From positions 3,328,001 through 3,392,000 of the forward strand of contig CM000153.2 in assembly GCA_000004695.1 (NCBI GenBank): a stretch of 64,000 nucleotides of DNA, in the 5' to 3' direction. The stretch's first letter is position 1, and each line of letters begins with the position of its first letter. The translations under genes were made by a program, and so were the position numbers. The stretch is from Dictyostelium discoideum. Its lineage: Eukaryota. This document shows positions 7,964-64,000 of this stretch, piece after piece. The notes under the pieces were generated by a model. That model was given only the letters and a program-made list of their open reading frames with translations, had not been told where the DNA came from and did no database searches.

Positions 7964-9568
7964 ATGGCACCACCAAATAAATCATCAAATAGAAATAAAA
8001 GTAATAATAATAATAATAAAAATAAAGTTAAAAGTAAAAAAAGTAAAAGATCAATAGATGAAACACCAGAAGCATTAGATTTAGATCAAGCAGCAATTAG
8101 TAAATCAATTGTATATAAAAGAGGTGATTGTAATAAAGGTATAAAGAAATTAGTTAAAGAGTTTAGACAGGTAATGGAGCCATATACAGCAACTAAACTC
8201 CAAGAGACATCAGACAATACCACCAAAGATTTTGTAAACATTGCAGCACATTACGGTGTTTCACATTTGGTTGGTTTCAGTTCAACCGATATCGGTAGTT
8301 ATATGGCAATGGCAAGATTACCAAAAGGTCCAACTACAACCTTCAAAATCCAAGAATACTCTTTCCAAAGAGATGTCGCAAAGGCTAAAATTCGTCCAAC
8401 TAGTTTTGAAAAATCTTATCTCAATTCACCTTTAGTAGTTTTAAATGGTTTCACTAGAGGTACACCACATTTAGAAATGGTTCAAAATATGGTTCAAAGT
8501 TTATTCCCATCAATTAATGTTTATACTGTATGTTTTTTTTTAAAAAAAAAAAAAAAAATTTAAAAATTAAAAATTTTATTAACTTTTTTTTTTTTTTTTT
8601 AATTATATAGTTGAAATTATCAACATGCAAAAGAGTTGTTTTATTCAATTATAATAAAGAAACTGATAATGTTGAATTTAGACATTATGCTATCAAGTAA
8701 GTCTTCTTTATAATAATAGTTAATAATTATTATAATATTAATATAAAATTTTTTATTTTTTATTTTTTTTTTTATTTATTTTTTAGAGTTTCAAATGTTG
8801 GAGTTAATCGTAGTATTAAAAGAATTATTCAATCAAAGATACCAGATATTTCAAATTTAGGAGATATTAGTGATTATGTTATGAATGGATTGGGTGCAAC
8901 AGAGAGTGATTATGAAGATGCAAATGATGGTCAAGTTGAGTTGAGTTCAAAGATGATCAATTCAAAAGCAAAGAATATAAAATTGGAACGTAAGGGATTG
9001 GATATTAATACCACTCAAAAGAGAGCAATCAAACTGGAAGAAATCGGACCACGTATGAATCTTTCTTTGTTAAAGGTTGAAGATGATCTTTACAAGGGTG
9101 AAGTACTCTACCATCAATACATTAAAAAGAGTGATATCGAGAAAGAAGAAGCTAAACTTCGTAGAGATGAAGCTAAAATCGAAAAAGAACGTAGAAGAAA
9201 AGATCAAGAAGCAAATGTCGATAAGAAAATAAAAGAAAAAGAAAGAAAAAGAAAATATTTAGATCAAGGTAATGAAGATAAACATTCTGATGATGATGAT
9301 GAAGAATGGTATAGAAAAGAAGTTGGTGAAAATCCTGATGAAAGTAAGTTTTTAAAAATAATAGATATTCATTAAAAAAAAAAAAGAAAAAAAATTTAAA
9401 AATAGAAATATTCTATTTTTATTTTATTTTAAAAAATTTTTTTTTTTTTTTTTTTTTATTACACATTACTAATTTTTACTATTTTTTTTTATAGCATTTA
9501 AAAATAATAGAAAATCTAGATCTACAGGTGGAGGACGTCCAAACAAAAAATTCAAATCAAAGAAATAA
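7964..9568 (+). CDS. Brix-domain ribosome biogenesis protein, Peter Pan/SSF1 homolog; join(7964..8527,8611..8696,8787..9343,9495..9568)
   Basis: Exon 1 contains [21 protein letters not shown] and LFPSINVYT, matching PPAN (RLPGGPTLTFQVKKYSLVRDV, LFPSINVH). A GTATGT donor at 8528 leads to exon 2 ([29 protein letters not shown], matching NLNTIKRCLLIDYNPDSQELDFRHYSIK). Exon 3 contains [19 protein letters not shown] (PPAN has LTEIGPRMTLQLIKVQEG) plus a K/E/R-rich tail. The terminal exon encodes [24 protein letters not shown]. All junctions are GT-AG and the phases are consistent. Confidence 0.8.
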
Positions 9569-10610
9569 ATAAATAAAAAAAAAAATATAAAAAAAAAATA
9601 AAAAAATAAAAAAATAAAAAGTAAAAATATAAAAAAATATTATTTGTAAATCTTGTCTTTTTTTATTATTATTATTATTTTTTTATATTGGTTAAAATAA
9701 AATTTTTAATTTTTTTGAATTTACTTGGTTTTTCAATTTTGTTTGCACAAGTAAAATATTTTTATTATTGTTTTAATTTTTTTTATTTTTTGTTGATATA
9801 TGATGAATATTATCTTCATAACTAGCGGTGTTAAAATGTTCAAATAACAATACCAACATATACATTTTCAAAAATAAAAAAAATTATAAATTTCAAAGGT
9901 AGTTACACCAAATATAAATAATAATAAAAATAATTTATTTACATAAACACACTAAAATTAGTGTTAAAATCAATAAAAAAAACAATAATAATGATAATAA
10001 TAATAAATTTCATACAAAATTTTGGTATTGTTATTTTCAATTAATGCAATAAAATATTTATTTTTATTTTTTTTTTTTTTATTTTTTTTTTTTTTTTGGG
10101 ATCAATAATAAAAAATAATCCTCAACAACCCCCATTTGCACAAAAACAGTCTTATTTTGGATTTTTTTTTTTTTTATTTTTTAATTTATTTATTTTCTAT
10201 TTTCTTTTTATTTTTATTTTTTTTTTTATTTTTTATTTTTTTTTATTTTTTTTATTTTTTATTTTTTTTTTTTTACTATATTAAAAAATTCAAATAAAAA
10301 AAAATCAAAAATAAAAATCTTTTTTTTTTTTCATTTTTTAATAATAAAATAAAATAGATTTTTTTCCACACTGTTGATTAATCACTTATTTTATATAAAA
10401 ATAAAAAAATAATAATATTTACTATTATTACTAATTGTATTGTTAAAGTGTTTTTTTTTTTATTATTATTAAAATAAATTTTCTTTTTTTTTTTTGTTCT
10501 GTTTTGTTTTTTTTACATATACAATAACTATAAAAAAAAATTTTTTTTTTTTTTTTTTTTTACTAAATTGGTAATTTTAGAAAGTATTAATAATTAATTT
10601 TTTATTTTTT

Positions 10611-10967: not shown

Positions 10968-11690
10968 ATGACACTTTCAATTGCCAAACCGTTTGTTTCA
11001 ATTTTTAAAAAAGGAAAATCTAAAAAGAGTGAACATGATGATATCAATGGAAATTCTCACCACCATCATGATAGTAATTATATAAAATCGAAACACCACG
11101 GTGACATTGAACAAAATTCAAATTATTTAACTGTAAATCACAAACAAAAATCATATACTGATAATGATAAAATTGAAGAGACATATACTGTATTGGTAAG
11201 TTAATAAATTTAAGTATTTAAATTTTTAAAAATAGTTGCTAATTCTAAAATAATTTTTCATTTTTATATTTTTTTTATTTTATTTTAAAAGTATCAAGTT
11301 TATGATGAAAATTCATGTAGAGGTGCCAGTCCACAATTAAAATATGAAGAAAGAGTTTTAAAGATAAATGAAGAGGGTGTATTTTTATTTGAACAAGAAA
11401 AGTTGGTTTGCCATTGGGGATTCTCATTAATTAAAGAATTTTCATTGGATGAAAATTGGACTGACTGGATAGTAATATTAAGAGATTCAACAAAACATTA
11501 TTTTAAATCTTATGAAGTAAGTAATTTATTATTATTATTTTTATTTTTTAAAATTTAAAAAAACTATTAACATATCTTATTAATAATTTAAATTATTATT
11601 TTATAGAGTATTCAAATCCATTTAAAGATAAATGATATAATAAGGAAATTAGTTAGTCAAATTCCATCTTCATCTTCTTCATCTTTCTAA
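10968..11690 (+). CDS. hypothetical protein (~178 aa); join(10968..11195,11292..11516,11607..11690)
   Basis: ORF 10968..11204 ends at a GTAAGT donor. The next open segment, YQVYDENSCRGASPQLKYEERVLKINEEGVFLFEQEKLVCHWGFSLIKEF...KHYFKSYE, ends at another GTAAGT. A terminal exon follows: SIQIHLKINDIIRKLVSQIPSSSSSSF*. I recognise no family; the N-terminus is His/Asn-rich. Confidence 0.5.
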
Positions 11691-11979
11691 GAAAATAAGA
11701 AAGAAAAAAAAAAAAAAAAAAAAAAAAATTATTATGGACCTTTTTTTTTTTTTTTTTTTTTTTTTATATTTTGTAAATAGTAAATAGTATTTGTTTTTTT
11801 TTTTTTTCTTATAAGTTTTATTTTTGTTTTTTTATTTTATTTTTAGTATAAGGTCATTTGTAAATAGTAGTAAATCAAAAAATTAAATTAGACATTAATA
11901 AAGATTAGAATTTATTTTTAAATCATAGTTTTATTAGTTTTTTTTTATTTTAAAATTATTATTATTATCAGTTTAAAAT

Positions 11980-12927
11980 TTATTGAACTTTTTTAATATT
12001 ACTTTTTTTTTGAGATTGTTGAGGTTGTGCTGATGGTGGTATTGTTGATCGTTGTTGTTGTTGTCTTTGTTGTGACGGTGGAAGGAAAACTGATTTACCA
12101 CCCCATATCTTTTGATTAATTGCCCTACCTATGATATAAAGAGAAACACCGAAACAAGAGGAAGAGAAAATGAAAATAATTTTTGAATGAATTGGAATTA
12201 CAGCTAAAATTGGATAAACCCAAAAATTTAAATGAAAACGTGTATAAGCAATGATACCAATATAAAAGAGAATAAAAGATACTAAATATGATACATCTTG
12301 TTTTAAATCCGATGTAATTGGCACAATCTCAGAGATTGGTGATGATCTTTCTTTGAATTTTCTTAATGTATTTGGGTCTGGATGGTATTGATGATTTACA
12401 ATCAATGTTTCAATTACAATTAAAATACCTGGTAATGTATGATGTAAATGATTTAAATAAGATGGAAACCATGAATCTAATGCTTTTCCAAATATTAATT
12501 CCCTATCATAATGATAAATTCCCCAAAATAATGATGTTATTACAATTCCAATTGGGAATATAATTGATCTAAATATTAAATCTCTAACTCTTAAAAATAA
12601 ATAATAATATGGTGTATTCTTTTTTGCTTTAAAAATATTTAATAAATCTACAATACTTGATGTACCAAAAAAGAAAATTAAGAAAAACTAATAAATTAAA
12701 TAAATTAAATAAATTAGTATAAGATTTAATGATTTGAAAAAAAAAAAAAAAAAAAAAAAACTACTTACTTGACCCCATAATGTTAAAAAACATAACATAA
12801 TAAGAGGATCTGTACGACCTGCAACACCACCATTTGATACAAATAAACTATAAAATTTTGCCATACCAATTGATGTTAATACAAAAAATGGACAATGGAA
12901 TAAGAATAATAATGAATCTTTTAACAT
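11980..12927 (-). CDS. AIG1/FAR-17a (ADTRP) family membrane hydrolase, ~288 aa; join(complement: 12769..12927, 11980..12687)
   Basis: Exon 1 encodes MLKDSLLFLFHCPFFVLTSIGMAKFY...LTLWGQ and ends at a GTAAGT donor. Exon 2 contains FPIGIVITSLFWGIYHYDRELIFGKALDSWFPSYLNHLHHTLPGILIVIETLIVNHQYH. This aligns with human AIG1 [59 protein letters not shown], including the Thr/His catalytic-dyad region. The ORF-track pieces 12688..12927 and 11980..12405 lie in these exons. Confidence 0.75.
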
Positions 12928-13294
12928 TTTTTAATTATACAAAATAAATAAAATAAAAAATAATAATTAAAACTATCTTCTGTATTATTTTTTTATTTAT
13001 TTTTTTTTAATTTAATGGGAGGTAAGATCAATAATAAAAAAAAAGACAATTGTGATCACAAACTATTTTTATTATTTTTATTTTTTTTTTTATTTTTATT
13101 TTTTTTTTTTTCAAAAAATAAAAAAAAAAAAAAAATTAAAAACAAAGATTTCATTTCATTTGTAAAAATTCATAAAATTAACAAAAAACAGTGCCCCCAA
13201 TCTTCAACAACACATACATACACATTTGTTATTATTTTTATTATAATAAATTACAACTGTATTACAATAATAAAATAATATATAAAAAAATAAA

Positions 13295-14194
13295 ATGGCA
13301 CGTAATGAAGAGAAAGCAAAATCTATGTTAAATAGATACCTTCAATTAAAGGGAACAGAATCAAAACAAGAAGAAAGAAGACCTTACCTATCAAATGAAT
13401 GCGATTCATTGGTAGATGCAGAGAAATGGAGACGTCAAATTTTAAAAGAAATTACAAGAGGAATCACTGAAATCCAAAATTGTAATTATCATATACCACC
13501 CACCCCACCCACCATCACACCCATTTCTATTTATATCACTATCTCCCCATCTTACCATAATTATAATTTCACCACACACATACACACACACACATATATA
13601 TAGTATATTATTAATATTATTAACATTTTATTTTTATTTATTTTTAATTTAATTATATATATATATTAGCTGCACTTGATGAATATAAAATTAGAGATTT
13701 AAATGATCATATAAATAAATTAGTTAGAGAGAAAGGACATTGGGAAAGAAGAATATTACAATTGGGTGGACCAAATCATAGAGCATTAGCACCAAAATTA
13801 TTTGATGCAGATGGTAAAGAACCATTGGGAACAGGTACATATAGATACTATGGTGAAGCAAAGAATTTACCAGGTGTTGCTGAATTATTTGAAAAACCAG
13901 AACAAACATTACACGGTACAGAAAAAAAAACAAGACAAGATCTATATAAATATATTGACTCTGATTACTATGGTTATAGGGATGATGAAGATGGTAAATT
14001 GGAAGAAATTGAAAGAGAATATGAAAAATATGCAATTGAACAAAATGTTGAAAATTGGAAAAAACAACAAAGAGATAAATTTCAAATTAATACTAATAGA
14101 TTTAACAATAATAATATTAAAAATAGCATTGCTATTAATAAAAATACAGAAAATAAAGATGAAATTAATATAGATGATGATGAAGAAAATGATG

Positions 14195-14225
<31 letters not shown>

Positions 14226-14382
14226 AGAAAATACAGAAAATATAGAAAATATTCAAGAAGAAGAAGAAAAAGAAGATATTAAATTTAAATCATATGTATC
14301 ATTACCATCAACATCACAAATTGAAACTATACTTTTAGAAAAAAGAAAAGAAGAATTAAGAAAACGATACACCCAAAATTAA
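13295..14382 (+). CDS. isy1: pre-mRNA-splicing factor ISY1; join(13295..13481,13670..14382)
   Basis: Exon 1 (MARNEEKAKSMLNRYLQL...ECDSLVDAEKWRRQILKEITRGITEIQN) matches the ISY1 N-terminus (MARNAEKAMTALARWR...AEKWRRQIIGEI). A GTAATT donor at 13482 and the acceptor tatattag|CT at 13670 join in phase 1 to ALDEYKIRDLNDHINKLVREKGHWERRILQLGGPNH...YRYYGEAKNLPGVAELFEK...DSDYYGY, which is collinear with human ISY1. The tail is rich in Asn, Glu and Asp. Confidence 0.85.
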
Positions 14383-14492
14383 ACAAATAAATGTACATAA
14401 AATAATAATATTTTTTAAAATCACCTTTTTATTTGGATTTTATTTTAATTTATTATTATTTATTATTTATTATTATTTTGATAGTATTAATT

Positions 14493-16145
14493 TTAAACAG
14501 TTTCATAAATTTTTCTTAATTGTTCAGTATTTGTTGGTAGGAAAGTAATTGGACATTTACTATGTTCATTTACATATCCAAATATACAAGGATAACAAAA
14601 TACAAAACCACTACCACAAATTGTTGGATTTGTTCTTTCTTTAAGACATAATGGACATAATCTCTTATCTCTTGGAATTTCTAATCCACCTGGTGCTCTC
14701 TATTTTTAAAAATAATAATAATAATAATAAATCTTGATTAGTATAAAATAAAAAAAAAAGAAATCTATTTTAAATTTATTTTTTATTACCTTTGAAGGAG
14801 TTGGAGGTGTTGGAATTGGTAAAGTTGGAGCAGATATTCTATTTTCACTATACCACCATTCTAATGATTTAAATATGAAAACTGATAATGGTAAAATATA
14901 TTTTGAATAATCTAAAATCGAATCTAAAATTGAAACTAATCTAACAAAGAAACTTGAACCTGGCCAATCCCTAACAAAATTAATTCTATCCCTTCTTCTA
15001 TTTGATATTACAACTCTATGTGATTCCTATAAATATTTTAAATTTTAAATATTAATTAAATTGAAAAATAAATAAATAAATAATAAAAATAAACTTACAA
15101 TATCTTTATGATTTAATCTTTTTAATTGTATATTTTGAAAATGAAAGAATGGTGTATAATAATTTGTATATTCATAGAGATATAATAATTGATAAATAAA
15201 GAAAAGTGCTTCATAGATTGCACTTATGAATGGATAAACTTTTAAGAATATTGTTTTTAATTTTTTTAATGTTTTTGAACCTTTTAAAAATCTGATTAAA
15301 ATTAAAAATTTAATCTTTAATTTCTTATTGTTATTGTTACTATTATTATTTCCATTGACAATTGTTTGTTGTTGTTGAATCTGTTCTTCAAGTTGTTGAA
15401 TTTGGTCATTAATATTATCATTATTATTATTATTGTTATCTGATGACACTAAACCAAGTTCTGCTAATGGATCAGATTCTTTTTTATAATATTCATCTAA
15501 TTTACCTTTAAAATAAGGTATGAGTACTAAATATATTAATGATTCTTTTCTATCGCTATCTTGAATCATTGTATTTAAATCATCTTTAGCTTGTTGTGAT
15601 GATGATGCTGCTGCTCTATTTCTACGTATCATTGCAAATGATTTCTTTAAAATTTGACTTTTTGTATATGTTTCTGGTCCTTGTCCTGCATTTGATGGTG
15701 TTACTACTAATCTTTTCAATAATGAAAATAATGTATCACCATCACCATTTGCATTATTATTTCTTGGTTTAATTCTTTTTAAATTATAAAAATTCTCTGA
15801 AAATGATCCCTCTAAAAATAATTAAATAAATGAATAAATAAATAATAAATATATATTGCAATTAAATAAATTTGGATGATGTGAATTATAAATAATGAAA
15901 AAAAAAAAAAAAAGATAATTACCATAATATTTTAAATAATGATATTCTAGTAATAATAATAATGAATAAAAACATTCATCATAATAATTAACAATATATC
16001 TAAATTTAGGATTTCTTTGAGAAAGTACAGTGAATATATACTTTAATGCAGGTTTGAAAGAAGGCATCATTTGATGTTGATTTAACATTTCAAAAAATGA
16101 TGGCCTATTTGGATCGTGACCATTATCAAAGTTGAACATAAACAT
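14493..16145 (-). CDS. pex12: peroxisome assembly protein PEX12 (peroxin-12, RING finger); join(complement: 15923..16145, 15099..15811, 14790..15026, 14493..14699)
   Basis: Exon 1 (MFMFNFDNGHDPNRPSFFEMLNQHQMMPSFKPALKYIFTVLSQRNPKFRYIVNYYDECFYSLLLLLEYHYLKYY) matches the PEX12 N-terminus ([58 protein letters not shown]). Exon 2 encodes ...IPYFKGKLDE...VYPFISAIYEALFFIYQLLYLYEYTNYYTP.... Exon 3 includes WPGSSFFVRLVSILDSILD.... Exon 4 carries the C-terminal RING domain CPLCLKERTNPTICGSGFVFCYPCIFGYVNEHSKCPIT (PEX12 has [39 protein letters not shown]). Donors are GTAATT, GTAAGT and GTAATA, and the phases are consistent. Confidence 0.8.
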
Positions 16146-53253: not shown

Positions 53254-56039
53254 TAGAAAATGATAATATGTATGATGAAAAATTAATTAAATTTTGTAAA
53301 GATATAGTTTCAATTGAAGAAAATGAATATATAAAGTCAATTATAAAAATATTAAATTTAATTAAAAATGATGATAATTCAAAAAAGAATTATACAATGT
53401 TTTTATTAGGTTTAGCTAAATTCTCACATGTAATTCAATATAAATTAGTTGATGAAATTGTTAATGCAATCAATGTTGAAGGTGCCAAAACACTATTTGA
53501 ACCAACTATAATGGATACAACCGATTTCAATTTCTTAATTATACCAATGTTAAAAATTAATGGTTTTTATTTTGAAAAGTTTAAAACATTAATGAATTTC
53601 ATTAAAAAGAATTTAAAAGATGATTATCGTGAAGCTCAACATAGAAAATATTTAAATATTACAAATTGTGAAGATCTTGATCAAAATAGTTTAAAAAATC
53701 AAACACACCCCCCTACATTACCTTTGAATTTTGGTGATGGTATAGGTAGTGTTATTGGTGGTTCTATTAGTTTTAATAATGGTATTGATTCAATTCATTA
53801 TTATTTATTACCACAATTTTATAAACAATCATTATTGATTGATAATAATCATTTTGAAAAGACTTTATCAATATTAGAAAAGTTACATCAATATGCAAAT
53901 TTCCTATTACCAACTTTAGATTTCACCTATAATTTCGCAACATGTTGTGAAAATAAAAAAGAAACCAAAGATAGTTTAATGATATTTAAAGTTGATGAAT
54001 CAATTTTACTTAAACATTCAATAACATTACGATCAAATACTAAAAGTGATTTTCAAATTCGTTTAGCTAATAATAATTTATTAAGATTGAAAGAATTATT
54101 CATTTTCTTATTTGAACGTATTAAAGAACATCATTTAATGAAAGAATCTTTAGAATTTATTTTATATGGTTTAAAAAATAGTGAAGAAAATGAAAATCAA
54201 AATGAAAATCAAAATGAAAATGGTCCTCATTCAATTAAATATAAATTTGTATTGGATAAATTAAAACATTTCTTATTAATTTTATCAATTGATGAAATTG
54301 ATAAATATTTAGTACCAATTTTTACAGAACAATGTTTAAAATCACCATATTATAAAATGAAACAAGTTAAACCAATTATAAAGGAATCGTTAAGTAGAGA
54401 TAACCAAGCACAAATTATATTACCAATTTATTTAATTCAAAATATATTATTATTGTTAATTAATGATAGTTCAACAACAAGTCAAAGATGTAAATTAAAA
54501 TTATCAATGGTTAATAAATTATTTTATAAAAATGTTGTAAACATTATAAACTCATCAATTAGTGTACCGATATATCTAAAGAAATCATTCTTAAAATTAC
54601 AACAATTAAATCATCCAAGAGATTTAGAAACAAATTCATTGGCTAAAGTTAATGGAGATTGGTCAATATTAAAAATTGATAAAATATCATATTTAAAGAT
54701 TAAAACACCTTCTAGAATCATTGAAAGTTTAGATTTATCTTATGGTAATTTACTTTTATCAATGAAACAATTAAAAATTTTAGAAATTAAACTTTACAAT
54801 GGTAAATTCTCAAAAGATGATTTCAATTCATTAATTGCTCTACCAACTTTAGAAAAAGTTATATTTAGTGAAACATTATCAAAAGAAATTTTAAATTCTT
54901 TATCATCAATTAAAAAATTATCAAAAGTAAAAAAAGTTGAATTATATTTAATTGATGATACTGATTTAAATTCTGATAATTATGATTATAAATTATTAAA
55001 TTCATTATCATATTATTATAATGGTAATGGTAGAAATAGTGGTAATGATGATGACGATGATGATGATGGTTTAGGTGATATTAATCATATAATTAAAATT
55101 AAGAGAATCAATGTTGGTTTTGGATTTTTTTTATCTTGTTATTTTAATGGTACATTAAATTGGATATCAAATAATTTAGTAGATTGTTTTAAAATTCATT
55201 TATCACAATGTGATTTTAATCATGACTTTAGTGGTCAATTAGTTTCAGATTTTAGAAATAGTATTAGTGCTATTACACTTTTAAGTAATAAGAATAGTAT
55301 TACTAGTGCTGGTGGTAGTAGTGGTAGTGGTAGTGGTGGAAATTTCTTTAGTGGTGATGAAGAGTTTTTAGGATTTTCTCATGGTAGAATTTCAAGAATT
55401 AAAACTTTAAGACAATATAAAGATTTATTCACTTCAAATTATTCAAAGAAATCATTTAAATCAAATATTAAACAATTGGAAATTTATTTAGATAATGGTG
55501 AATTATCAATACTATTATTGCAATGTTTATTGGATGAAATAAATTTAGAATCTATTAAAATCCAGTATGCATTACTTGAACCAAATTCAAAAATTAAAAA
55601 ACCAGCTTCAAAATTATTTAAATTCCTATCATCATCAAAATCATTCCAATCATTGAATTCAGTTTCAATTCAAACTTTATCAGGTTATTCAAATGATTTA
55701 ATTGATTGGTTTAATAATAAAACTTATTCTTTCACTCCTGCAAATAATTTCAAATTTATTGACTTTTATAGAAATCAACCATTTTCAAATGATTTAGAAT
55801 TTAGTGATGATGATGATGGTGATGGTGATGGTGATAATAATGAAAATAAAAAAGGTGATAATTTAAATAGTGATGGTGATGATGACGAATTGTTTGATGG
55901 TGAAAGTGATGAAATGTTTAGTGAAGATTTAGAAATGCAACTAGAAACTGAAGGTTTGAATGATGGTGAATATAACTTTGGTGATTATGATGACGAAGAT
56001 GACGATGAAGATGATGATGATGAATATGATGATGAATGA
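52070..56039 (+). CDS. large hypothetical protein (~1236 aa) with leucine-rich-repeat-like central region and acidic C-terminal tail; join(52070..52242,52408..52633,52728..56039)
   Basis: ATG at 52070 (MLTLSDFNLDIEEIINHLLKSEANNPP...IKNLKE) ends at a GTAAGT donor (52243). Exon 2 (52408..52633, EVIYKYDKNDEFYLVARY...LLTNSHSFSQ) ends at a second GTAAGT donor. The acceptor ttttatag at 52727 is in frame with the 1066-aa ORF 52839..56039. The ORF contains poly-N tracts, LRR-like L-rich repeats and a D/E-rich tail (DYDDEDDDEDDDDEYDDE*). Confidence 0.55.
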
Positions 56040-56217
56040 ACATTTCATTCATATGAATGCTTTAAACTAAACAACAAAATAAAAATTTTAAAAAGCCATT
56101 AAAATATTTCTTTTTTTTTTTTTTTTTTTTTTATTATTACTATTATTTTAATTAATTTCTCAATAATTAATATTGTTATTATTGTTGCCAGTGCTAATAA
56201 AAATCATTTGTCGAATG

Positions 56218-56272
<55 letters not shown>

Positions 56273-57001
56273 CAAATCTTAATAATCTTAATAAAATCTA
56301 TCCCAAATAAATAAAATAATTATTGTAATGATATTCTATGTGCCATAATAAAACTTTTTTTTTTTTTTTTTTTTTTTTTTGTGTCTTGTTGTTGTGTTTA
56401 ATATTTTTTAACATAACATCAATAAAATCTATCTCAAACATTGATAAAAAAAAAAAAACTATTTGAAACCGTTAGCCTCTTTAAAAAAAAAATGCTGAAA
56501 ACAAAAAAAGTGTTGGCCAACCCATTTGCACCTTGGGTTACAGTAATAATAACAAAAAAAAAAAAGAAAGAAAAAAAATATCTTTGTTTATAATAAACTT
56601 TTTTAAATAAAAGAATAAAAAAAGAACTAAAAAATTTTTATTTTTTTTTTTTTTTTTTTTTTTTTTTATTTTTTTGAATTTATAGGTGCATATTAAAAAT
56701 AAATAAAAAAAAGACTATAAAATAAAAAAAATAAATTAAAAAACAATATAATTAAAAGTTTATTCTATTTTTTTTATTATTATTTTTTTTTATAAAATTT
56801 TTCGCAACAAAACTTTTTTTGGTTCGAAAATAAAAATAAAAAAAAATAACGTGATTTCATTTTAATTTAATCAATCATAAAAAAATAATGAGAAATTTTT
56901 CAAAAAAAAAAAAATTGAAAATTTTTACGTTGGACACCTTTCGTTAAAAATTTTTTATTTGTGCATTCAATTTTTTTCTTCCTTTTTCTTTCATCCACAT
57001 A

Positions 57002-57755
57002 ATGTCTGAGTAGGTTTATCTATATGTTATTTCATGTCGCATTTTATATTTAGGTCATAATAAACAATATAAAAATAAATAGAAATTTAGGATTGATTCA
57101 AACAGATTAAGATTAAAAAAGATTAAAAAGGATTATCAATTATTCTATTTACTATGACGAATCTATGACAGAATAACAACACAATACGATAATAATTTAT
57201 AAAATTATAATAAAGGATTGGTTATTAATCAATAATCTTTCATTTAATAGACAAATCAAAAAGCGTACTTTCAAAAAGTTCACATACTCTGGTGTTGCCT
57301 TAGAGAGTCTCCTTGACTTAAAGGAAGAACAATTAATTTCATTATTGAGATGTCGTGCTCGTAGAAAGTTAAGACGTGAAACCCCAATCAAACACGTCAA
57401 CTTCTTAAAGAAATGCAGAGCCTCAAAAGCCGCCGTTACCCAAGTCGGTGAAAAACCAGCCCTCGTCAAAACCCACGCTCGTAACATTTTAATTGTTCCA
57501 GAAATGATCGGTTCTGTCATTGGTATCTACAACGGTAAAGTTTTCAATCAAGTTGAAGTTAAACCAGAAATGATTGGTCACTACACTGGTGAATTCTCAC
57601 TCTCATACAAGAGTGTCAACCATGGTCGTCCAGGTATTGGTGCTACTCACTCTTCAAGGTATGTTTTTTTTTTAAAAAAAATAATAACAAAAGGTTACTT
57701 TTACTAACATATTTATTATTTTTTTACAAAATATAGATTCATCCCATTGAAGTAG
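57002..57755 (+). CDS. rps15: 40S ribosomal protein S15 (uS19); join(57002..57009,57251..57658,57737..57755)
   Basis: Exon 1 is an 8-nt micro-exon (ATG TCT GA|GTAGGT). Exon 2 after catttaatag gives [46 protein letters not shown]...[66 protein letters not shown], ending at a GTATGT donor. Exon 3 after atatag gives RFIPLK*. It is nearly collinear with human RPS15 (..[46 protein letters not shown]...[70 protein letters not shown]). Confidence 0.85.
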
Positions 57756-57915
57756 ATTTTTTATATATCTCTTGTAGCTTTGTTTTAAAATAATAAAGTG
57801 ATAAAGTTATAAACAGTAGTAATAGTAGAAAAAGAATTATTTTTAGTTTATTTTATGTTATTTTTTTAAATTTTTTTTATATCTTTATTTTTTATTATTA
57901 TTGTTTTATTTTTTT

Positions 57916-58767
57916 TTAAGGACATACTACAGTTGATTTACCATTAACAGTTGTAAATTTTAAACCACTTTTATAAATAAAAGAGGTTTTTGCACCATTA
58001 TTGTTTTGTTGTCTTGCTTTAACTATTGCTAAAACACCTTCGTCACCAATATGATTACTTGATAAATTTAATTTTACATTTCTTTTTGTTGTTTTTAAAA
58101 TATCAGCCATTGACATAGCACCTTGATTTCCAATTTCATTATTTGATAAATTAATGGTTTCAATGGATTTATTAACTTTTAACATATTTGCAATGGCAAG
58201 GGCACCTTGTGGACCAATTTTATTATTATTGAAATCCAATTCAATAATTGATTTATTCTTTTCTAAACCTCTACATAGTTGAATGATAGAGTCATTATCC
58301 AAATAGCAATATTCAAAATTCATTGATAAAATGGTTGAATTGGTTTCCAAGGACATTGATATTAGTGATGCCCTTTTCTTATCGATTTCAATATTTGAAA
58401 AGTCTAATGTTGTTAGGGTTGTACTATTTTCAATGATTTGTTGAATTGATAGGAATGCTTGATCCAATACACTTTGTTTATAAGGTATCAATAAATTCTC
58501 TAACCTTTCCGGTACCATTTTAATACTATTAATAGAATGAAAATTATAATATCTCCAAAGTTTACATACTAATGATAATTGATAAAAAGATTGTGATGGT
58601 AATTCATTTGGTTTATCATTTTCATTTACCATTGAAAATATTTTTAATAATACAGTTCCTGGTAAAAAATTAATTTCATAAATTTGTTTAAAATCTCCTA
58701 AAATAATTTTATTATTATCTTTATTATTTTTATTATCATTATTTTCAATAGATTGTTTATTTCCCAT
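57916..58767 (-). CDS. leucine-rich repeat protein (ribonuclease-inhibitor-like LRRs), N-myristoylation-type N-terminus, 283 aa
   Basis: MGNKQS at the N-terminus matches the Gly2 myristoylation consensus. RI-type LRRs follow (IIELDFNNNKIGPQGALAIANMLKVNKSIETINLSNNEIGNQGAMSMADILK...LNLSSNHIGDEGVLAIV). It is a single exon. Confidence 0.65.
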   Translation of the reverse strand: MGNKQSIENNDNKNNKDNNKIILGDFKQIYEINFLPGTVLLKIFSMVNENDKPNELPSQSFYQLSLVCKLWRYYNFHSINSIKMVPERLENLLIPYKQSVLDQAFLSIQQIIENSTTLTTLDFSNIEIDKKRASLISMSLETNSTILSMNFEYCYLDNDSIIQLCRGLEKNKSIIELDFNNNKIGPQGALAIANMLKVNKSIETINLSNNEIGNQGAMSMADILKTTKRNVKLNLSSNHIGDEGVLAIVKARQQNNNGAKTSFIYKSGLKFTTVNGKSTVVCP

Positions 58768-59325
58768 TCTTTTGAAAGTAATAGATTAATTGTAAATTAA
58801 CCCAATTTAATTTTATTATTACTAATTGTATTTTTTATTTTTAATTATTAATTATTTTTTATTTTTTTTATTTTTTTTATTTTTTTTATTTTTTTTTTAT
58901 ACAATTTTTTTTTTTAAAGTGATAAATAAATGTAATATTGGTAATTAAAAATATTATTATATTATTATTATATTTATTATTATTATTTTTTTTAATTGTT
59001 TGGAAAAAACAAAATCAATTATTGATGGTTTATTTTTTTTTTTATAAAATTATTTATTTAATTATTGTGTTATTAATATAACAATTGTTTAAAAATATAA
59101 GTATCTTTTTTTGTAGTTTTTTGAATCGAATATTTTTTTTTTTTTTATAACCCAATTGAATTGGATAAATGTAATTTAATTATTATTTTTTTTTTTTTAT
59201 TTTTTAATTTTTTTTATAATTTTTTTTTTTTTTATTATTTATTATTTAATTTTTTATTGCATTTTTTAAATGATTTATACAGCTTTATTGCACTGAGAAA
59301 GATAACATAATATATACATTTTAGC

Positions 59326-59367
59326 ACACATTCACACAAACACACAAACACACAAACACACAAACTC
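59326..59367. repeat. (ACACAAAC)n microsatellite
   Basis: cacacattcacacaaacacacaaacacacaaacacacaaac in an intergenic region. Confidence 0.7.
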
Positions 59368-60025
59368 AAATTCAAATGTCTCAGTAAAAAAAAAAAAAAA
59401 AAAAAAAAAAATTGGATTGAATAATCATTAAATATTGTTATCATTTTTTATTTATTGAGTTTTTAAGTATGCAAGGGTGATAATGATAGATATATTATAC
59501 AAATTAAATCATTTAATTAAATTTGTAAAAAAAAAAAAAACCAAAACAGGTTTATTAAATTTTTTATTAATTTTATTTTATTTATTTGGTGGTAATATTA
59601 CTGTTTCAATAAATTTTATATTATTTTTTTATTTTATTTAATTTTTTTCAAAAAATAAAGCACCTATCTCATTCCACACACACTAACCCCGATTTTTTAA
59701 TTTTTATTTTTATTAAATTTTTTTTTATTTTTTTTTTTTATTTGTCATTAATTTTTTTTTTATTTTATTTGAAGAGACAAGATGCGAGAAATAATTTGAT
59801 AAAAATCTGATTTTTTTTTTTAAATAACGATTTCATGACAAAAAAAAAGGTTATTATTTATAGATGGCTTGAAAAATTAATAATAAAAAAAATTAAATAA
59901 ATGCAAACATTTATTCCTATTTAAAAGGTTTTTTTTTTTTAATAATTAAAAATAAAATATTTAAACAAATAAATAAAAAATAAAAAATATAAATAGTTAT
60001 TAAATAAAATAAAATAAATAAAAAA

Positions 60026-60706
60026 ATGAATTCAATTGAAAATAATAATAAAATTTGGTTAATCACCGGAACATCAAGTGGTATAGGTTTAGAATTTGTA
60101 AAGAAATTATTTGAAATATGGTTATAAATTATCAGCATTAACTAGTAAACCAGAAGAGATTATAAAAGAGATTAAATTTGAAAAAGATAATTTATTAATT
60201 GTTAAAACTGATATTACAAACAATGAATTAGTAAAGAATGCAGTGACTAATAAACAATTTGGTAGAATTGATGTATTGGTTAATAATGCTGGTTATGGTT
60301 TAGTTGGTGCAATTGAAGAATTATCAGATTCAGAGGTTAGAAAGATATACGATGTAAATGTATTTGGCGTTTTAAATTTATTAAGAAATTCAACACCATA
60401 TTTTAGAAAACAAAAATCAGGTTTAATAATTAACATTTCCTCTCAAATGGGTTGGGATAGTATGCGAAATTATTCAGCCTACAGTTCAACTAAACATGCA
60501 GTTAATGCAATTACATTATCAGCACAAAAAGAGTTTAAACCATTTGGTGTAAATGTAATTTTGATATTTTTAATAAATATGCTTTCACCCGTTTCGCTCA
60601 AGAGTTTGATCTCTATTTTGGTCTTGCTTTATTCACTGGTTTAACTGCTTTAGATACTCACAATGTAAACCAGATTTCATTAGAGTTCCAATTGATCTAT
60701 TTTTAG
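60026..60706 (+). pseudogene. short-chain dehydrogenase/reductase (SDR) family gene with disrupted reading frame (pseudogene or base-call errors)
   Basis: ATG at 60026 gives MNSIENNNKIWLITGTSSGIGLEFVKKLFE (Rossmann TGxxxGIG), then hits a stop. The SDR body continues in another frame from 60111: KYGYKLSALTSKPEE...IDVLVNNAGYG...NISSQMGWDSMRNYSAYSSTKHAVNAITLSAQKEFKPFGVNV, with NNAG and the Y-x3-K catalytic motif. A second shift occurs near 60565 (..DIFNKYAFTRFAQEFDLYFG.. lies in a third frame). No GT...AG interval long enough to be an intron separates the pieces. Confidence 0.5.
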
Positions 60707-61405
60707 ATATTTTAAATATCTCCGTTAGACTTTTAAGAGCTGGAAGTTAGTAAACAAAAAAAAAAAAAAAAAAAAAATATAAAAAAAGATAAAAAAAAAA
60801 AAAAAAGAAAAAAAAAAAGAAATAAAAAATGTGGTATTAAAATTTGTAAATAAATAAATAAAGCTGTAATTAAATTTAATCAAATAAAAAATTTTATGGA
60901 AGAATTTTTTAGAAAACAAAAAAAAAAAAAAAAAAAAAAAAATTATTTGAAAATCTAGCAAACGATCGAACGTAAAAAATAATTGGATATTATTTTATGA
61001 AAATTAGAAATCTATTTTAAAAAGTTTAATTTAAATAATGTTTTGGATTGGTTTTATTAAAAAAATTATTTTTTATATGCAAAAGTTATTTTTTAATTTT
61101 TTTTTTTTTTTTTATCAAAATGATTATTTTAAAAAGTTTTGTTTTTTTTTTTTTCTTTTTTTAAAATTTAAAGAAATTATCATGTGATTATTTTAAAATC
61201 CAAACGAAATAAAAGAAATTTATTTTTTAAAAATATCTTTTTCACCAAAAAAAAAAAAAAAAAACCATCGTTTGTGTAAAAAAAAAAATACATTTCGATA
61301 AAATTCAAAATCAGAAAAAAAGTTACTTTTTTAACAAAAAATGACAGAAAAATATAAGGTAAACTTTTTTTATATTTTATTTTTATTTTATTTTTTAAAT
61401 TATAA

Positions 61406-62370
61406 TTTCAATGTTGTAATTTTCCGACATCATTTTCTCAAATTAATTCAACAAATGGGTTTTTAATATCAGAAGGCAGAAGTTTAATTTCAATTGAACA
61501 TGGAGACTTGAATGGTGATGGTAATGATGATTTGATATATTCTATAAATTCAGAAGGACTATATGTATTTTATGGGCCATTGGCAAGTAATTTTGATTTT
61601 CAACATTAAATGGAGTAATGGTTTTTTAATTAATAATTTCAATCCATTTTCTGCTTATCTTTATGATATGAATAATGATGGGATTGGTGATATAATGATA
61701 AATAGGGGACATATAGCAATCGATATTATTTATGGTAGTAGAGGTCCTTTTACCTCACCATATATCCCAGTTTATGATGGTGTCAAAAGTACCAGTTTCA
61801 GCTTTTTAGGTTGCTCAATAGATACTAATACTCTTCCAAATGCTTTTGGAGATTTTAATAATGATGGACTTAATGATTTTGGTGTAATTTATTCTTTATT
61901 ATTTTTGATTATTCTTATTCTTTATTATTCTTTATTGTTATTATACTAATTTTTACATTTTATTAAAAAATTTTAGATTCTTACAAGACTGACTTCGGGT
62001 GACCAAATAGCTTTTTTGGTTTGGGGTAAAACAGAATATCCACCAACAACAACATTAAGTATAAATCTAAATCCATCGGATGGTTTGGTTATAACAGTTG
62101 TTGGCAACACCTATAACTGGGCTTTATCTCCTAGATTGGGGATATAAATAATGATGGATTTGCAGATTTTTTAATCAGTGGTAACACTGACCTCCCATTC
62201 ACCATTTTGTATGGTAATAATAAAAATTATGCTTCAAATCCAATTTATTTAAAAGATCAAGTTGGTGATTGTTCAATAATGTCAATTAATGGCTATGTTG
62301 AGGCTATTGATATTGGTGATTATAACTCTGATGGTATTCATGATATTGTAATTAATATTATATTAAATCA

Positions 62371-62446
<76 letters not shown>

Positions 62447-63713
62447 TTTAAATAATTCTATTCTATCAGACAGCATATATAATAGCAACAGGTTCATATT
62501 TAGATATTTATACACTATATGGTCAAACTTCAATTGGTTCAATTTCAATAATTGGTAAATTATTTCTACCAAATCCAGTGTCAAACACAATTTATAAATT
62601 ATTTGAAAATAATATTAATTCAGAAGTTGGACAATGCGCAATTAGAATTGTTACATTAACAATTGAAAATTCAGCAAATGAAGATCAATTTATTATTGAT
62701 CCTAGTTTCAATAGTTCAATATATTCAATAGCATTTAATAATAATACAAGAGTTAGAATTGAGTTAATATTATTTGGTGATGAGAGTAAATCAATTGCAA
62801 ATGATGTTTTACCAAAAATAACAGTTTCATTATCACCTCAACTATTTAATAGAACTGTATTAATGAAATATGGTAATCAAGTACAATCAATTAATGCCCA
62901 AATGCAAATTGTGACACAAAATGTTTAAATAGTGGTACTTGTAATCCACTCACTGGTTGCCAATGTATAAATGATCATTATGGTGATTTTTGTGAATTAA
63001 AAGATTGTACAGTTCCACAATGTTTAAATGGTGGTTCATATAATACAACAGTTGATGAATGTTCATGTCCTCAAGGTTATGAAGGTACGGATTGCAGTGG
63101 TATTAGTTGTTCAGCTTCATGTTTAAATGGTGGCTCATGTAATACTACGGTTGGTGAATGTTCATGTCCTCAAGGTTATGAAGGTATGGATTGCAGTGGT
63201 ATTAGTTGTCCAGTTTCATGTTTAAATGGTGGTTCATGTAATACTATGGTTGGTGACTGTTCATGTATAAATGGCTTTTATGGTGATGATTGTGATACAA
63301 AGGATTGTACAGTTCCACAATGTTTAAATGGTGGTTCATGTAATACAACAGTTGGCGAATGTTCATGCACTCAAGGTTATGAAGGTATAGATTGTAGTGG
63401 TATTAGTTGTTCAGTTTCATGTTTAAATGGTGGTTTATGTAATACTACAGTTGGTCAATGTCAATGTGTTGAAGATTATGAAGGCGATGGTTGTGGTTCT
63501 GAAAACAAAAAGAAAATAAATATTGGTGTTATTATTGGTCGAATTTTAGATGGTCTTGCACTAATTGCAATTATTGTTGTTGCCATTGTTTTAATTAAAA
63601 AGAAGAAGAATGGAAATTCAAAGAAAAATACAAATAACATTGAATTAAGACCTCAAAGTTCCACTGTTGATATTCAAATGGGTGGTAGAATTAAAAATCT
63701 TGATAAATTTTAA
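61406..63713 (+). CDS. type-I membrane protein with FG-GAP (integrin-alpha-like) repeats, about 7 EGF-like repeats, a TM helix and a short basic tail; coding frame broken at >=3 points (possible pseudogene or sequencing errors)
   Basis: FG-GAP Ca-binding motifs (DxNxDGxxD) lie in consecutive open segments: GDLNGDGNDDLIYS (61406..61609), YDMNNDGIGDIMIN..FNNDGLNDFG (61548..61883, GTAATT donor), ILTRLTSGDQIAFLVWG (exon from 61977), IGDINNDGFADFLISG..GDYNSDGIHDI (62135..62361, GTAATT donor), and TAYIIATGSY... (62467..62928). The frame slips at 61590-61612 (T4 run), 62138-62141 (G4 run; one extra G would restore ..SPRLGDINNDG..) and 62895-62912 (C3 run). The last frame, 62895..63713, encodes six-Cys EGF modules (CLNGGSCNTTVGECSCPQGYEGxDC) x7, the TM helix IGVIIGRILDGLALIAIIVVAIVLI, and KKKKNG...*. 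Confidence 0.5.
62372..62443. repeat. (TTA)n trinucleotide microsatellite (~24 units) inside an intron of the FG-GAP/EGF gene
   Basis: Perfect attattatt... tract. The ORF-track poly-Leu tail of 62207..62455 is an artefact of this tract. Confidence 0.85.
62895..63713 (+). CDS. terminal coding segment of the FG-GAP/EGF gene: 7 tandem EGF-like repeats + TM + cytoplasmic tail (272 codons, intact frame)
   Basis: The frame is open from the TAA at 62892 to the TAA at 63711. The ORF-track entry 63186..63713 is its internal-ATG subset. The EGF units are about 99 nt long and several are near-identical at the nucleotide level. Confidence 0.7.
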   Translation, partial: CPNANCDTKCLNSGTCNPLTGCQCINDHYGDFCELKDCTVPQCLNGGSYNTTVDECSCPQGYEGTDCSGISCSASCLNGGSCNTTVGECSCPQGYEGMDCSGISCPVSCLNGGSCNTMVGDCSCINGFYGDDCDTKDCTVPQCLNGGSCNTTVGECSCTQGYEGIDCSGISCSVSCLNGGLCNTTVGQCQCVEDYEGDGCGSENKKKINIGVIIGRILDGLALIAIIVVAIVLIKKKKNGNSKKNTNNIELRPQSSTVDIQMGGRIKNLDKF

Positions 63714-63877
63714 ATTTAAAAAGAGATTATTTTAAATCAATTATGTTGTATTATTATTATTTTTTAACAAAAAAAATAAAAAAAAAAAAAAAAAATTTTG
63801 ATCAAAATGATTATAATAAAAAAAAATACAAACCGCAGGGGTTATTTTTAAAAATAATTTGAAACAATTCAGTGATT

Positions 63878-64000
63878 TCAAAATAAATAAAAATAATTAG
63901 CATCATTATCATCATTAAGCACTAGTTCTTTGAAATAAAGTGTTTCTTCAATTGAAACTGGTAGTTCAAGTGGTTCATTTGGTTCAAATGAAACATCGGG
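63878..64000 (-). CDS. 3' end (last ~40 codons) of a minus-strand gene continuing beyond the window end; product unknown
   Basis: Reverse-strand frame open from the window edge to TGA (plus 63878..63880): ..DVSFEPNEPLELPVSIEETLYFKELVLNDDNDANYFYLF*. The composition is coding-like, but the segment is too short to identify. Confidence 0.3.
   Translation of the reverse strand, partial: PDVSFEPNEPLELPVSIEETLYFKELVLNDDNDANYFYLF

Follow-up and report, generated by a model that had tools for sequence, protein, structure and literature searches.

Within a 64,000-nt stretch of Dictyostelium discoideum DNA (hereafter the window; contig CM000153.2 of assembly GCA_000004695.1, positions 3,328,001-3,392,000 of the forward strand, GC content ~22%), the plus-strand interval 61341-63713 is, with a probability that we put at roughly 93%, a real, recently duplicated and unprocessed pseudogene of a gene for an FG-GAP/EGF membrane protein. 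The lesions that break its reading frame, the occurrence of these same lesions in two independent data sets, the boundaries of the duplication, the lack of the insert in other strains and the survival of an intact parent gene are all directly observed. The copy is not a processed one, because the second and third ancestral introns are retained. A first-pass annotation, made from the letters of the window, had offered two readings of the interrupted frame, a recently decayed pseudogene or an under-polished stretch of assembly. The former is borne out by five deletions unique to this copy, the latter falls on comparison with an independent assembly, and the two comparisons are laid out in turn below. 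Features given by window coordinate lie on the plus strand unless another is named.

Frame-breaking lesions in the window copy

Relatives of the pseudogene were gathered by protein search, and the DNA of their loci was then retrieved. Besides two AX4 models on the pseudogene locus itself (P0005 and P0006), an AX4 paralog (P0004) and an automatic D. discoideum model (P0001), this search returned two full-length relatives, P0003 from D. discoideum and the 836-residue P0002 from D. citrinum; the remaining matches were all bacterial FG-GAP proteins, at 25-36% identity. Three intact genes made up the comparison set: a 932-residue gene at 11870-15029 of locus L010, which comes from the independent D. 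discoideum assembly GCA_054883475.1, of the same genome type as the window; the 997-residue gene g2, which stands beside its tandem paralog g1 at the D. discoideum assembly locus L002; and the D. citrinum gene of 836 residues. The intact genes were resolved into exons and introns, and the frames of L002 g2, the L010 gene and the D. citrinum gene are clean once the introns are removed. Lesions were called after the window copy had been aligned with the intact genes by MAFFT, in sets of four and of five sequences.

Five deletions in the coding sequence are found in the window copy only, and all three intact genes agree at every one of these sites. The ATG at 61341 is the ancestral start codon (the protein begins MTEK.. 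in all relatives) and has no intron beside it. The first-pass annotation had regarded the 5' exon as unresolved, on the ground that this ATG did not splice in frame; what shifts the frame is the loss of 7 nt (TTTCAAT) after 61419, upon which the frame of the ancestral start codon, after no more than 41 codons, runs into a stop at 61464-61466. The second deletion, after 61598, is much the largest, with 512 nt lost, comprising 421 coding nucleotides (blades 2 and 3 of the propeller) and the whole of the 91-nt intron 1. Because the ends of this deletion share the sequence TTCAA, at equivalent points of two blades (..NFDFQ and ..FEFDPSTLNGSNGF), it probably arose by microhomology or slippage. A single G is missing after 61611 (GGG to GG), the sole homopolymer-length change among the five. 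After 62137 a lone A has been lost, such that TTA GGG GAT has become TTGGGGAT (in wider context, AGA TTA GGG GAT has become AGATTGGGGAT), with a stop following at 62145-62147; the GGGG run has the same length, and the A is present, in all three intact genes. The fifth lesion, after 62894, is a net loss of 10 nt, and the incoming frame stops at 62926-62928. An intron bridging this last break was considered and, by inspection, rejected: the sole GT..AG pair available (~62875-62931) leaves the frame unrestored and would remove EGF cysteines.

The coding bases deleted, 7, 421, 1, 1 and 10, reproduce the observed series of frames, namely 0, 2, 1, 0, 2, (intron) 1, 0. Three-frame translation of 61300-63760 likewise has coding-like segments alternating between frames, just as the first-pass annotation had described them. 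That account had gone on to place the breaks exactly at homopolymer runs, three in number, which is not how they are distributed, there being five lesions and one run-length change. The T4 run (~61595-61612) that was held to be miscounted is the junction of the 512-nt deletion. The G said to be missing from the G4 run at 62138-62141 was never lost, the run being unchanged in intact relatives and the lost base being the A that precedes it, and the supposedly miscounted C3 run at 62897-62899 adjoins the net 10-nt deletion.

The lesions in independent sequence data

The lesions exist in the organism's DNA. When GCA_054883475.1 is set against window positions 56000-64000, seven differences are seen, none of which falls within 61300-63760, where the two sequences are identical base for base. 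Two of the seven are substitutions, at 56087 and 56089, and the remaining five are length changes in long A/T tracts. These tract differences, of 2-22 nt at 56129, 56223, 56641, 60806 and 63778, mark where homopolymer uncertainty really sits in this region.

A second line of evidence comes from the AX4 protein models on the pseudogene locus itself, P0005 (DDB_G0285753, 324 residues) and P0006 (DDB_G0285565, 380 residues). Every residue of both lies within a 12-mer that occurs unaltered in the translated window, save single residues at the splice junctions of the models, and the exact match extends to the premature ends that the two models inherit from the lesions. Since the independent assembly is identical and the AX4 protein models match, the lesions belong to the DNA and not to its assembly. 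Exact look-up in read-level (Logan) assemblies returned no record for the products of the open reading frames (ORFs) at 63186-63713 and 61563-61949, nor for P0004, the AX4 paralog DDB_G0285745, and a search of the available literature library by three locus identifiers of the DDB_G type found no paper that mentions any of them.

Anatomy and decay of the copy

The architecture given in the first-pass annotation, FG-GAP repeats followed by EGF modules, a single transmembrane (TM) helix and a Lys-rich tail, is upheld by a Pfam search of the stitched, frame-corrected translation (FG-GAP_3, 6.6e-14; FG-GAP, 3.7e-8; EGF_TEN, 4.3e-23; EGF_2, 9.8e-15). The prediction of five or more FG-GAP calcium-binding repeats was likewise sound: five DxNxDGxxD motifs occur, distributed over two frames, at 61505-61531, 61665-61691, 61851-61877, 62141-62167 and 62318-62344. 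A remnant of ancestral exons 1 and 2 occupies 61341-61883 and, from the MAFFT alignment, the ORF list and the three-frame translation, holds the signal peptide and blades 1, 4 and 5. It is followed by the retained intron 2 (61884-61976; GT..AG, 93 nt), which aligns with introns of the L010 gene, g1, g2 and the D. citrinum gene, and then by exon 3 (61977-62347), which the alignment assigns to blades 6-7 and whose ORF at 62016-62147 closes at the stop created by the fourth lesion.

Retained intron 3 spans 62348-62469 (alignment and TRF) and contains an (ATT)24 microsatellite, perfect over 62371-62443. The ATT arrays of this intron have very different lengths among the paralogs and reach hundreds of nucleotides in D. 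citrinum; in L002 g1 such an array stands in place of the whole middle-domain exon segment.

Beyond the intron, ORFs and alignment define a middle domain of ~141 residues (62470-62894) that belongs to no Pfam family. The EGF array at 62910-63494, delimited by a module table, an identity matrix and the EGF_TEN and EGF_2 matches, consists of six modules of 87-102 nt each. The first-pass annotation had correctly typed these as tenascin-like (they are of the tenascin/teneurin type), and had counted seven of them where there are six. It had also called them near-identical at the DNA level, which overstates the case: pairwise identity runs from 55 to 92% (TRF period 99, 78% matches), and the pair cited as an example, 63099-63197 and 63198-63296, is 79.8% identical. 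The TM helix lies at 63516-63596, and the Lys-rich tail after it ends ..LDKF ahead of the stop codon at 63711-63713.

Apart from the deletions, the copy carries substitutions at conserved positions. EGF module 2 has lost its third cysteine by a TGT to TAT change (Cys-to-Tyr) at 63039, and within the TM helix a Pro-to-Arg (63540) and a Gly-to-Asp (63549) replacement give GRILDGLA in place of GPILGGLA, a motif whose conservation extends to D. purpureum. Of the sites at which at least three relatives do not vary, 20 are replaced in the copy, as against 12 and 9 in the two longer intact D. discoideum genes. With D. citrinum as outgroup, 36 non-synonymous and 11 synonymous changes are assigned to the lineage of the copy, which is about the neutral site ratio, versus 14 and 8 to the g2 lineage. 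Taken at the level of sequence, the copy would appear to be without function.

Origin of the copy and the split SDR gene

The duplicated block begins well upstream of the gene. Whether the comparison is made with D. discoideum or with D. citrinum, DNA homology to the parent locus sets in precisely at 60579, and window positions 60579-61603 align with L002 7137-8270 (81%) and L010 10965-12139 (80%); at the other end, 63005-63880 aligns with L002 13823-14676 (91%) and L010 14321-15188 (90%). The copied flanks thus defined amount to ~760 nt upstream, made up of the 3' end of a Bax1-I gene and intergenic DNA, and ~170 nt downstream. The Bax1-I (TMBIM) piece, at 60579-60747, is a frameshifted 3'-terminal fragment corresponding to residues 324-385 of the 389-residue DDB_G0285587; tblastn with P0098 matches 60584-60664 (100% identical) and, in a second frame, 60655-60747. 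DNA alignment assigns to the block a duplicated intergenic and promoter region of ~590 nt (60748-61340) and a duplicated 3' flank (63714-63880), with the block ending at ~63880. The intact Bax1-I gene (DDB_G0285587) and the 932-residue gene are found together in GCA_054883475.1, ~20 kb away on the same chromosome and in opposite orientation. Between the copy and this same-genome paralog (L010) DNA identity is 93.5-96.4%, or 3.6-6.5% divergence, as opposed to 19-25% divergence from D. citrinum. Because the divergence from the same-genome parent is the lower, the duplication is later than the separation of D. discoideum from D. citrinum.

Immediately upstream of the block, tblastn and Pfam adh_short identify a truncated N-terminal fragment of a short-chain dehydrogenase (SDR) gene at 60026-60578, covering residues 1-186 of 286 and frameshifted near 60100-60115. 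Searched with the intact SDR of L007, residues 1-31 are found at 60026-60115 and residues 27-186, in another frame, at 60102-60566; the adh_short match to the fragment reaches only profile positions 35-173 of 195. A complementary second SDR fragment, likewise frameshifted, lies ~3 kb past the end of the window (L001 12797-13320); the two fragments overlap over 159 bp, in which they are 93% identical. On the other hand, the SDR is intact, at 286 residues, in L007 and L008, which represent two further D. discoideum assemblies; there it stands between a 2OG-FeII gene and an LRR gene, and no FG-GAP/EGF sequence was found at this interval in either of them, nor at either of the two syntenic loci of D. 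firmibasis. With the SDR intact and the insert absent in L007 and L008, the AX4-type state is the derived one. The LRR gene next to the locus matches D. discoideum DDB_G0285563 at 100% identity.

What separates the two SDR fragments is a patchwork insertion of ~6.3 kb, which comprises inverted repeats of 250 nt and a fragment of a WD40 gene besides the copied Bax1-I 3' end and FG-GAP/EGF gene. One element of ~250 nt takes in the final 150 nt of the window (63850-64000) and recurs in three copies just downstream (L001 9821-11764), in alternating orientation and at 86-88% identity. A coding-like end on the minus strand stops near 63897, and the WD40 gene fragment is located at L001 11906-12583.

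From these boundaries we infer a course of events in which the parent locus, ~20 kb distant on this chromosome, gave rise to an inverted copy of a ~3.3-kb block (60579-63880). Along with the whole FG-GAP/EGF gene and its 3' flank, the block took with it the promoter region and the final 200 nt of the Bax1-I gene that lies upstream, and two of the three introns survive in it. The copy would then have landed inside the SDR gene, within the 6.3-kb patchwork insertion, thereby splitting that gene, and decay after landing would account for the five frame-breaking deletions (one of them removing two blades), for the loss of an EGF cysteine and for the gain of two charged TM residues. A simple inversion between the Bax1-I and SDR genes was also considered as the origin of this arrangement and was rejected: on the far side, neither the 2OG-FeII gene nor the second SDR fragment has been turned round, and both the intact Bax1-I gene and the parent gene are still in place.

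Alternative explanations

Were the frame breaks homopolymer miscalls in an under-polished assembly, the organism would possess an intact gene here, and it is true that every break lies at or beside a short run (T4, GG, G4 or C3) and that the two assemblies do vary in the lengths of long A/T tracts. Yet four of the five lesions are not changes of run length at all, consisting as they do of 7 nt, of 512 nt with a whole intron, of a lone A and of a net 10 nt; the G4 run is equally long in all the intact genes; over all 2.4 kb GCA_054883475.1 has the same sequence, which the AX4 protein models match as well; and the Cys-to-Tyr, Pro-to-Arg and Gly-to-Asp substitutions could not be produced by indel miscalls. 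We regard an artefact of this kind as very improbable. Even harder to credit is a live gene decoded in an unconventional manner, by odd splicing or programmed frameshifts, as would be implied by P0006 (380 residues) and by P0001, an 829-residue automatic model from another D. discoideum assembly. Gene predictors have indeed built open models here by way of short "introns" placed around the breaks, but these models drop conserved residues: the junction GDLNGD/VILIF discards the rest of blade 1, and RVRI/DGTCNP discards half of the middle domain together with the first EGF cysteines. The resulting product would retain only five of seven blades, one of its EGF modules would be broken and its TM helix charged, and both P0001 and P0005 fuse the pseudogene to the unrelated, and also frameshifted, SDR fragment. 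The chance that such decoding takes place is, in our estimate, close to nil.

A subtler proposal grants that the coding function is dead and holds that the locus is nonetheless not inert, being transcribed from the duplicated promoter and serving as a source of non-coding RNA or of small RNA directed against the parent, or as a donor of gene conversion to a live paralog. The ~590-nt upstream intergenic region was copied along with the gene, and DDB_G0285745 shares with the pseudogene 12 of the 23 residues at which it differs from the L010 gene, a mosaic compatible with gene conversion. The same mosaic could equally have come from strain differences, from a third paralog or from chimeric Sanger assembly of two copies that are 94-96% identical, and we give the proposal a slim chance.

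A few considerations do weigh against our reading of the interval as a recently duplicated pseudogene, or at least against its breadth. GCA_054883475.1 may share the NC4/AX4 laboratory lineage, in which case the agreement between assemblies proves the sequence correct without showing that the insertion is widespread in nature. The copy may be transcribed, or a short product may be translated from it. Furthermore, the ratio of non-synonymous to synonymous substitution rates (dN/dS) is ~1.0 between the copy and g2 (non-EGF part), yet it is ~1.2-1.5 for the apparently live pair g1/g2. Comparisons with D. citrinum give 0.4-0.5. The family is fast-evolving within D. discoideum, and dN/dS alone is therefore no proof of decay; we discarded it as a pseudogene test, live paralogs also having values of about 1 or higher.

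The intact family in Dictyostelium

Intact members of the family, which is found in group-4 dictyostelids, are single-pass membrane proteins that all have a signal peptide, an FG-GAP propeller of seven calcium-binding blades, a middle domain of ~140 residues, 4-10 EGF modules, a TM helix and a tail that reads KKKKNGNSKKNTNNIELRPQ...LDKF in all of them. The TM helix bears the family motif GPI(L/V)GGL(A/V). The window copy is a degenerate member by descent, in which every element can still be recognised. It resembles the 932-residue parent in start codon, signal peptide, blade sequence, middle domain, type of EGF module, LDKF tail and intron positions; it departs from the parent family in lacking blades 2-3 and intron 1, in the four further deletions, in the lost EGF cysteine, in the sequence GRILDGLA and in having six EGF modules.

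The first-pass annotation had thought this architecture unusual for an amoeba, which is too strong a statement, intact members being present in D. discoideum, D. citrinum, D. dimigraforme and D. purpureum. An exhaustive phmmer search with the middle domain recovered full-length relatives in Dictyostelium species only, and added to the collection proteins of the same architecture from D. dimigraforme (948 residues) and D. purpureum (DICPUDRAFT_148102, 788 residues); the orthologs are thus ACTFIV_004448 in D. citrinum, ACTA71_002617 in D. dimigraforme and DICPUDRAFT_148102 in D. purpureum. In view of the members from D. purpureum and D. dimigraforme, we rejected the idea of a family limited to D. 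discoideum and D. citrinum and possibly acquired horizontally not long ago. The number of EGF modules is 6 and 10 in the tandem L002 genes (8001-10569 and 11221-14528), 8 in the L010 gene, 5 in D. citrinum, 9 in D. dimigraforme and 4 in D. purpureum. Judging from the assembled sequences, both the copy number of the family and its EGF number vary between strains, a pattern of rapid turnover.

Relation to integrin alpha and other propeller and EGF proteins

The first-pass description of the gene as integrin-alpha-like holds in a loose sense, in that the protein has an FG-GAP beta-propeller; it does not extend to a leg domain, to a GFFKR motif or to a sequence match in PDB. What the intact family has in common with integrin alpha is a signal peptide, one TM helix and an FG-GAP propeller of seven blades in which DxNxDGxxD motifs occur, though the window copy itself has five blades where its intact relatives have seven. 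Unlike integrin alpha, in which only the last 3-4 blades carry cation motifs, the family has them in all seven, as do bacterial FG-GAP proteins. Pfam found no Integrin_alpha2 leg domain in the window translation, P0002, g2, P0099 or P0103, the middle domain being modelled by AF2 at a confidence low enough to leave room for a distant fold relationship to leg domains. The KxGFFKR motif that follows the TM helix of integrins is absent from the tails of all members, and a phmmer search of P0002 against all PDB sequences returned no integrin, only EGF-containing proteins.

In the AF2 model of the D. citrinum protein the propeller (residues 30-465) has pLDDT values of ~80-95, and the middle domain and EGF stalk have values of 30-60, too low to bear interpretation. 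When this predicted propeller is compared with PDB by Foldseek, the first match is CRTAC1 (9etn; E 6e-10, 11% identity), followed by the propellers of the BBSome and ITFG2 and then by those of integrins alphaV, alpha5 and alphaIIb, at ~1e-7 to 1e-6 and ~10% identity. CRTAC1 joins an FG-GAP-type propeller to an EGF-like domain. This vertebrate protein (cartilage acidic protein 1, or CRTAC1/ASPIC) differs from the family in being secreted and in having one EGF-like domain, and nothing points to shared descent beyond the propeller fold. Closer in sequence are the FG-GAP/VCBS propellers of bacteria and cyanobacteria, which have LxGxNGF...GDxNGDGxxD in every blade and furnish the only non-dictyostelid sequence matches (25-36% over the propeller), but these lack the EGF array, the middle domain, the eukaryotic TM helix, the tail and the introns. 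As for the EGF array, its repeat type is that of tenascins, teneurins and WIF-1 (Pfam EGF_TEN and EGF_2), and the best PDB sequence matches are to WIF-1 (4e-20) and teneurins; the remaining architecture of those proteins is unrelated.

The family is that of a generic FG-GAP propeller receptor and not of an integrin alpha. Dictyostelium species have been listed as lacking ITGA, and as having no canonical ITGB, only Sib proteins (Kang et al., bioRxiv 10.1101/2020.04.29.069435). These workers used a relaxed definition of ITGA, by which a propeller has to be anchored in the membrane and to carry FG-GAP/cation blades (Kang et al., bioRxiv 10.1101/2020.04.29.069435). The intact family might, in our view, qualify under it, and truncated or chimeric AX4 models may explain why surveys reported no ITGA in Dictyostelium. 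One could go further and suppose that the parent family, as distinct from the dead copy, is an overlooked integrin-alpha-like adhesion receptor of the group-4 dictyostelids, of whose turnover the pseudogene would be a by-product and possibly a conversion donor; we consider this unlikely.

Consequences for annotation and for strain comparison

The automatic gene models at this locus bear the imprint of the lesions. DDB_G0285753 is a chimera, which runs from the SDR fragment into blades 4-6 over the entire Bax1-I and promoter stretch and terminates where the fourth lesion creates a stop. DDB_G0285565 begins at a Met inside blade 7 and passes the fifth lesion only by way of the invented intron at RVRI/DGTCNP, and P0001 bridges the breaks by invented introns at three places. 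The AX4 entries DDB_G0285753 and DDB_G0285565 should be merged and relabelled as pseudogene fragments. The AX4 model of the paralog, DDB_G0285745, starts inside blade 7 and has no propeller, and 20-23 of its residues differ from those of the L010 gene, in an assembly otherwise near-identical. It appears to be a truncated version of the 932-residue gene, from which the whole propeller has probably been left out; gene conversion, chimeric assembly and a third paralog are the candidate causes of its mosaic of differences.

Assemblies labelled D. discoideum diverge in this region by 4-11% (L007 and L008 versus L004), identity being 95.7% over genic DNA and 88.6% over 9 kb with intergenic DNA included. 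This divergence is far above within-species expectation, and some assemblies that carry the D. discoideum label may represent cryptic lineages.

The dead copy says little about the function of its relatives, and the live family is, by its predicted architecture, a reasonable candidate for a surface receptor. For the organism, the locus is a structural variant at the level of strains: the AX4-type genome lost an SDR gene to the 6.3-kb insertion, which matters wherever laboratory strains are compared with wild ones.

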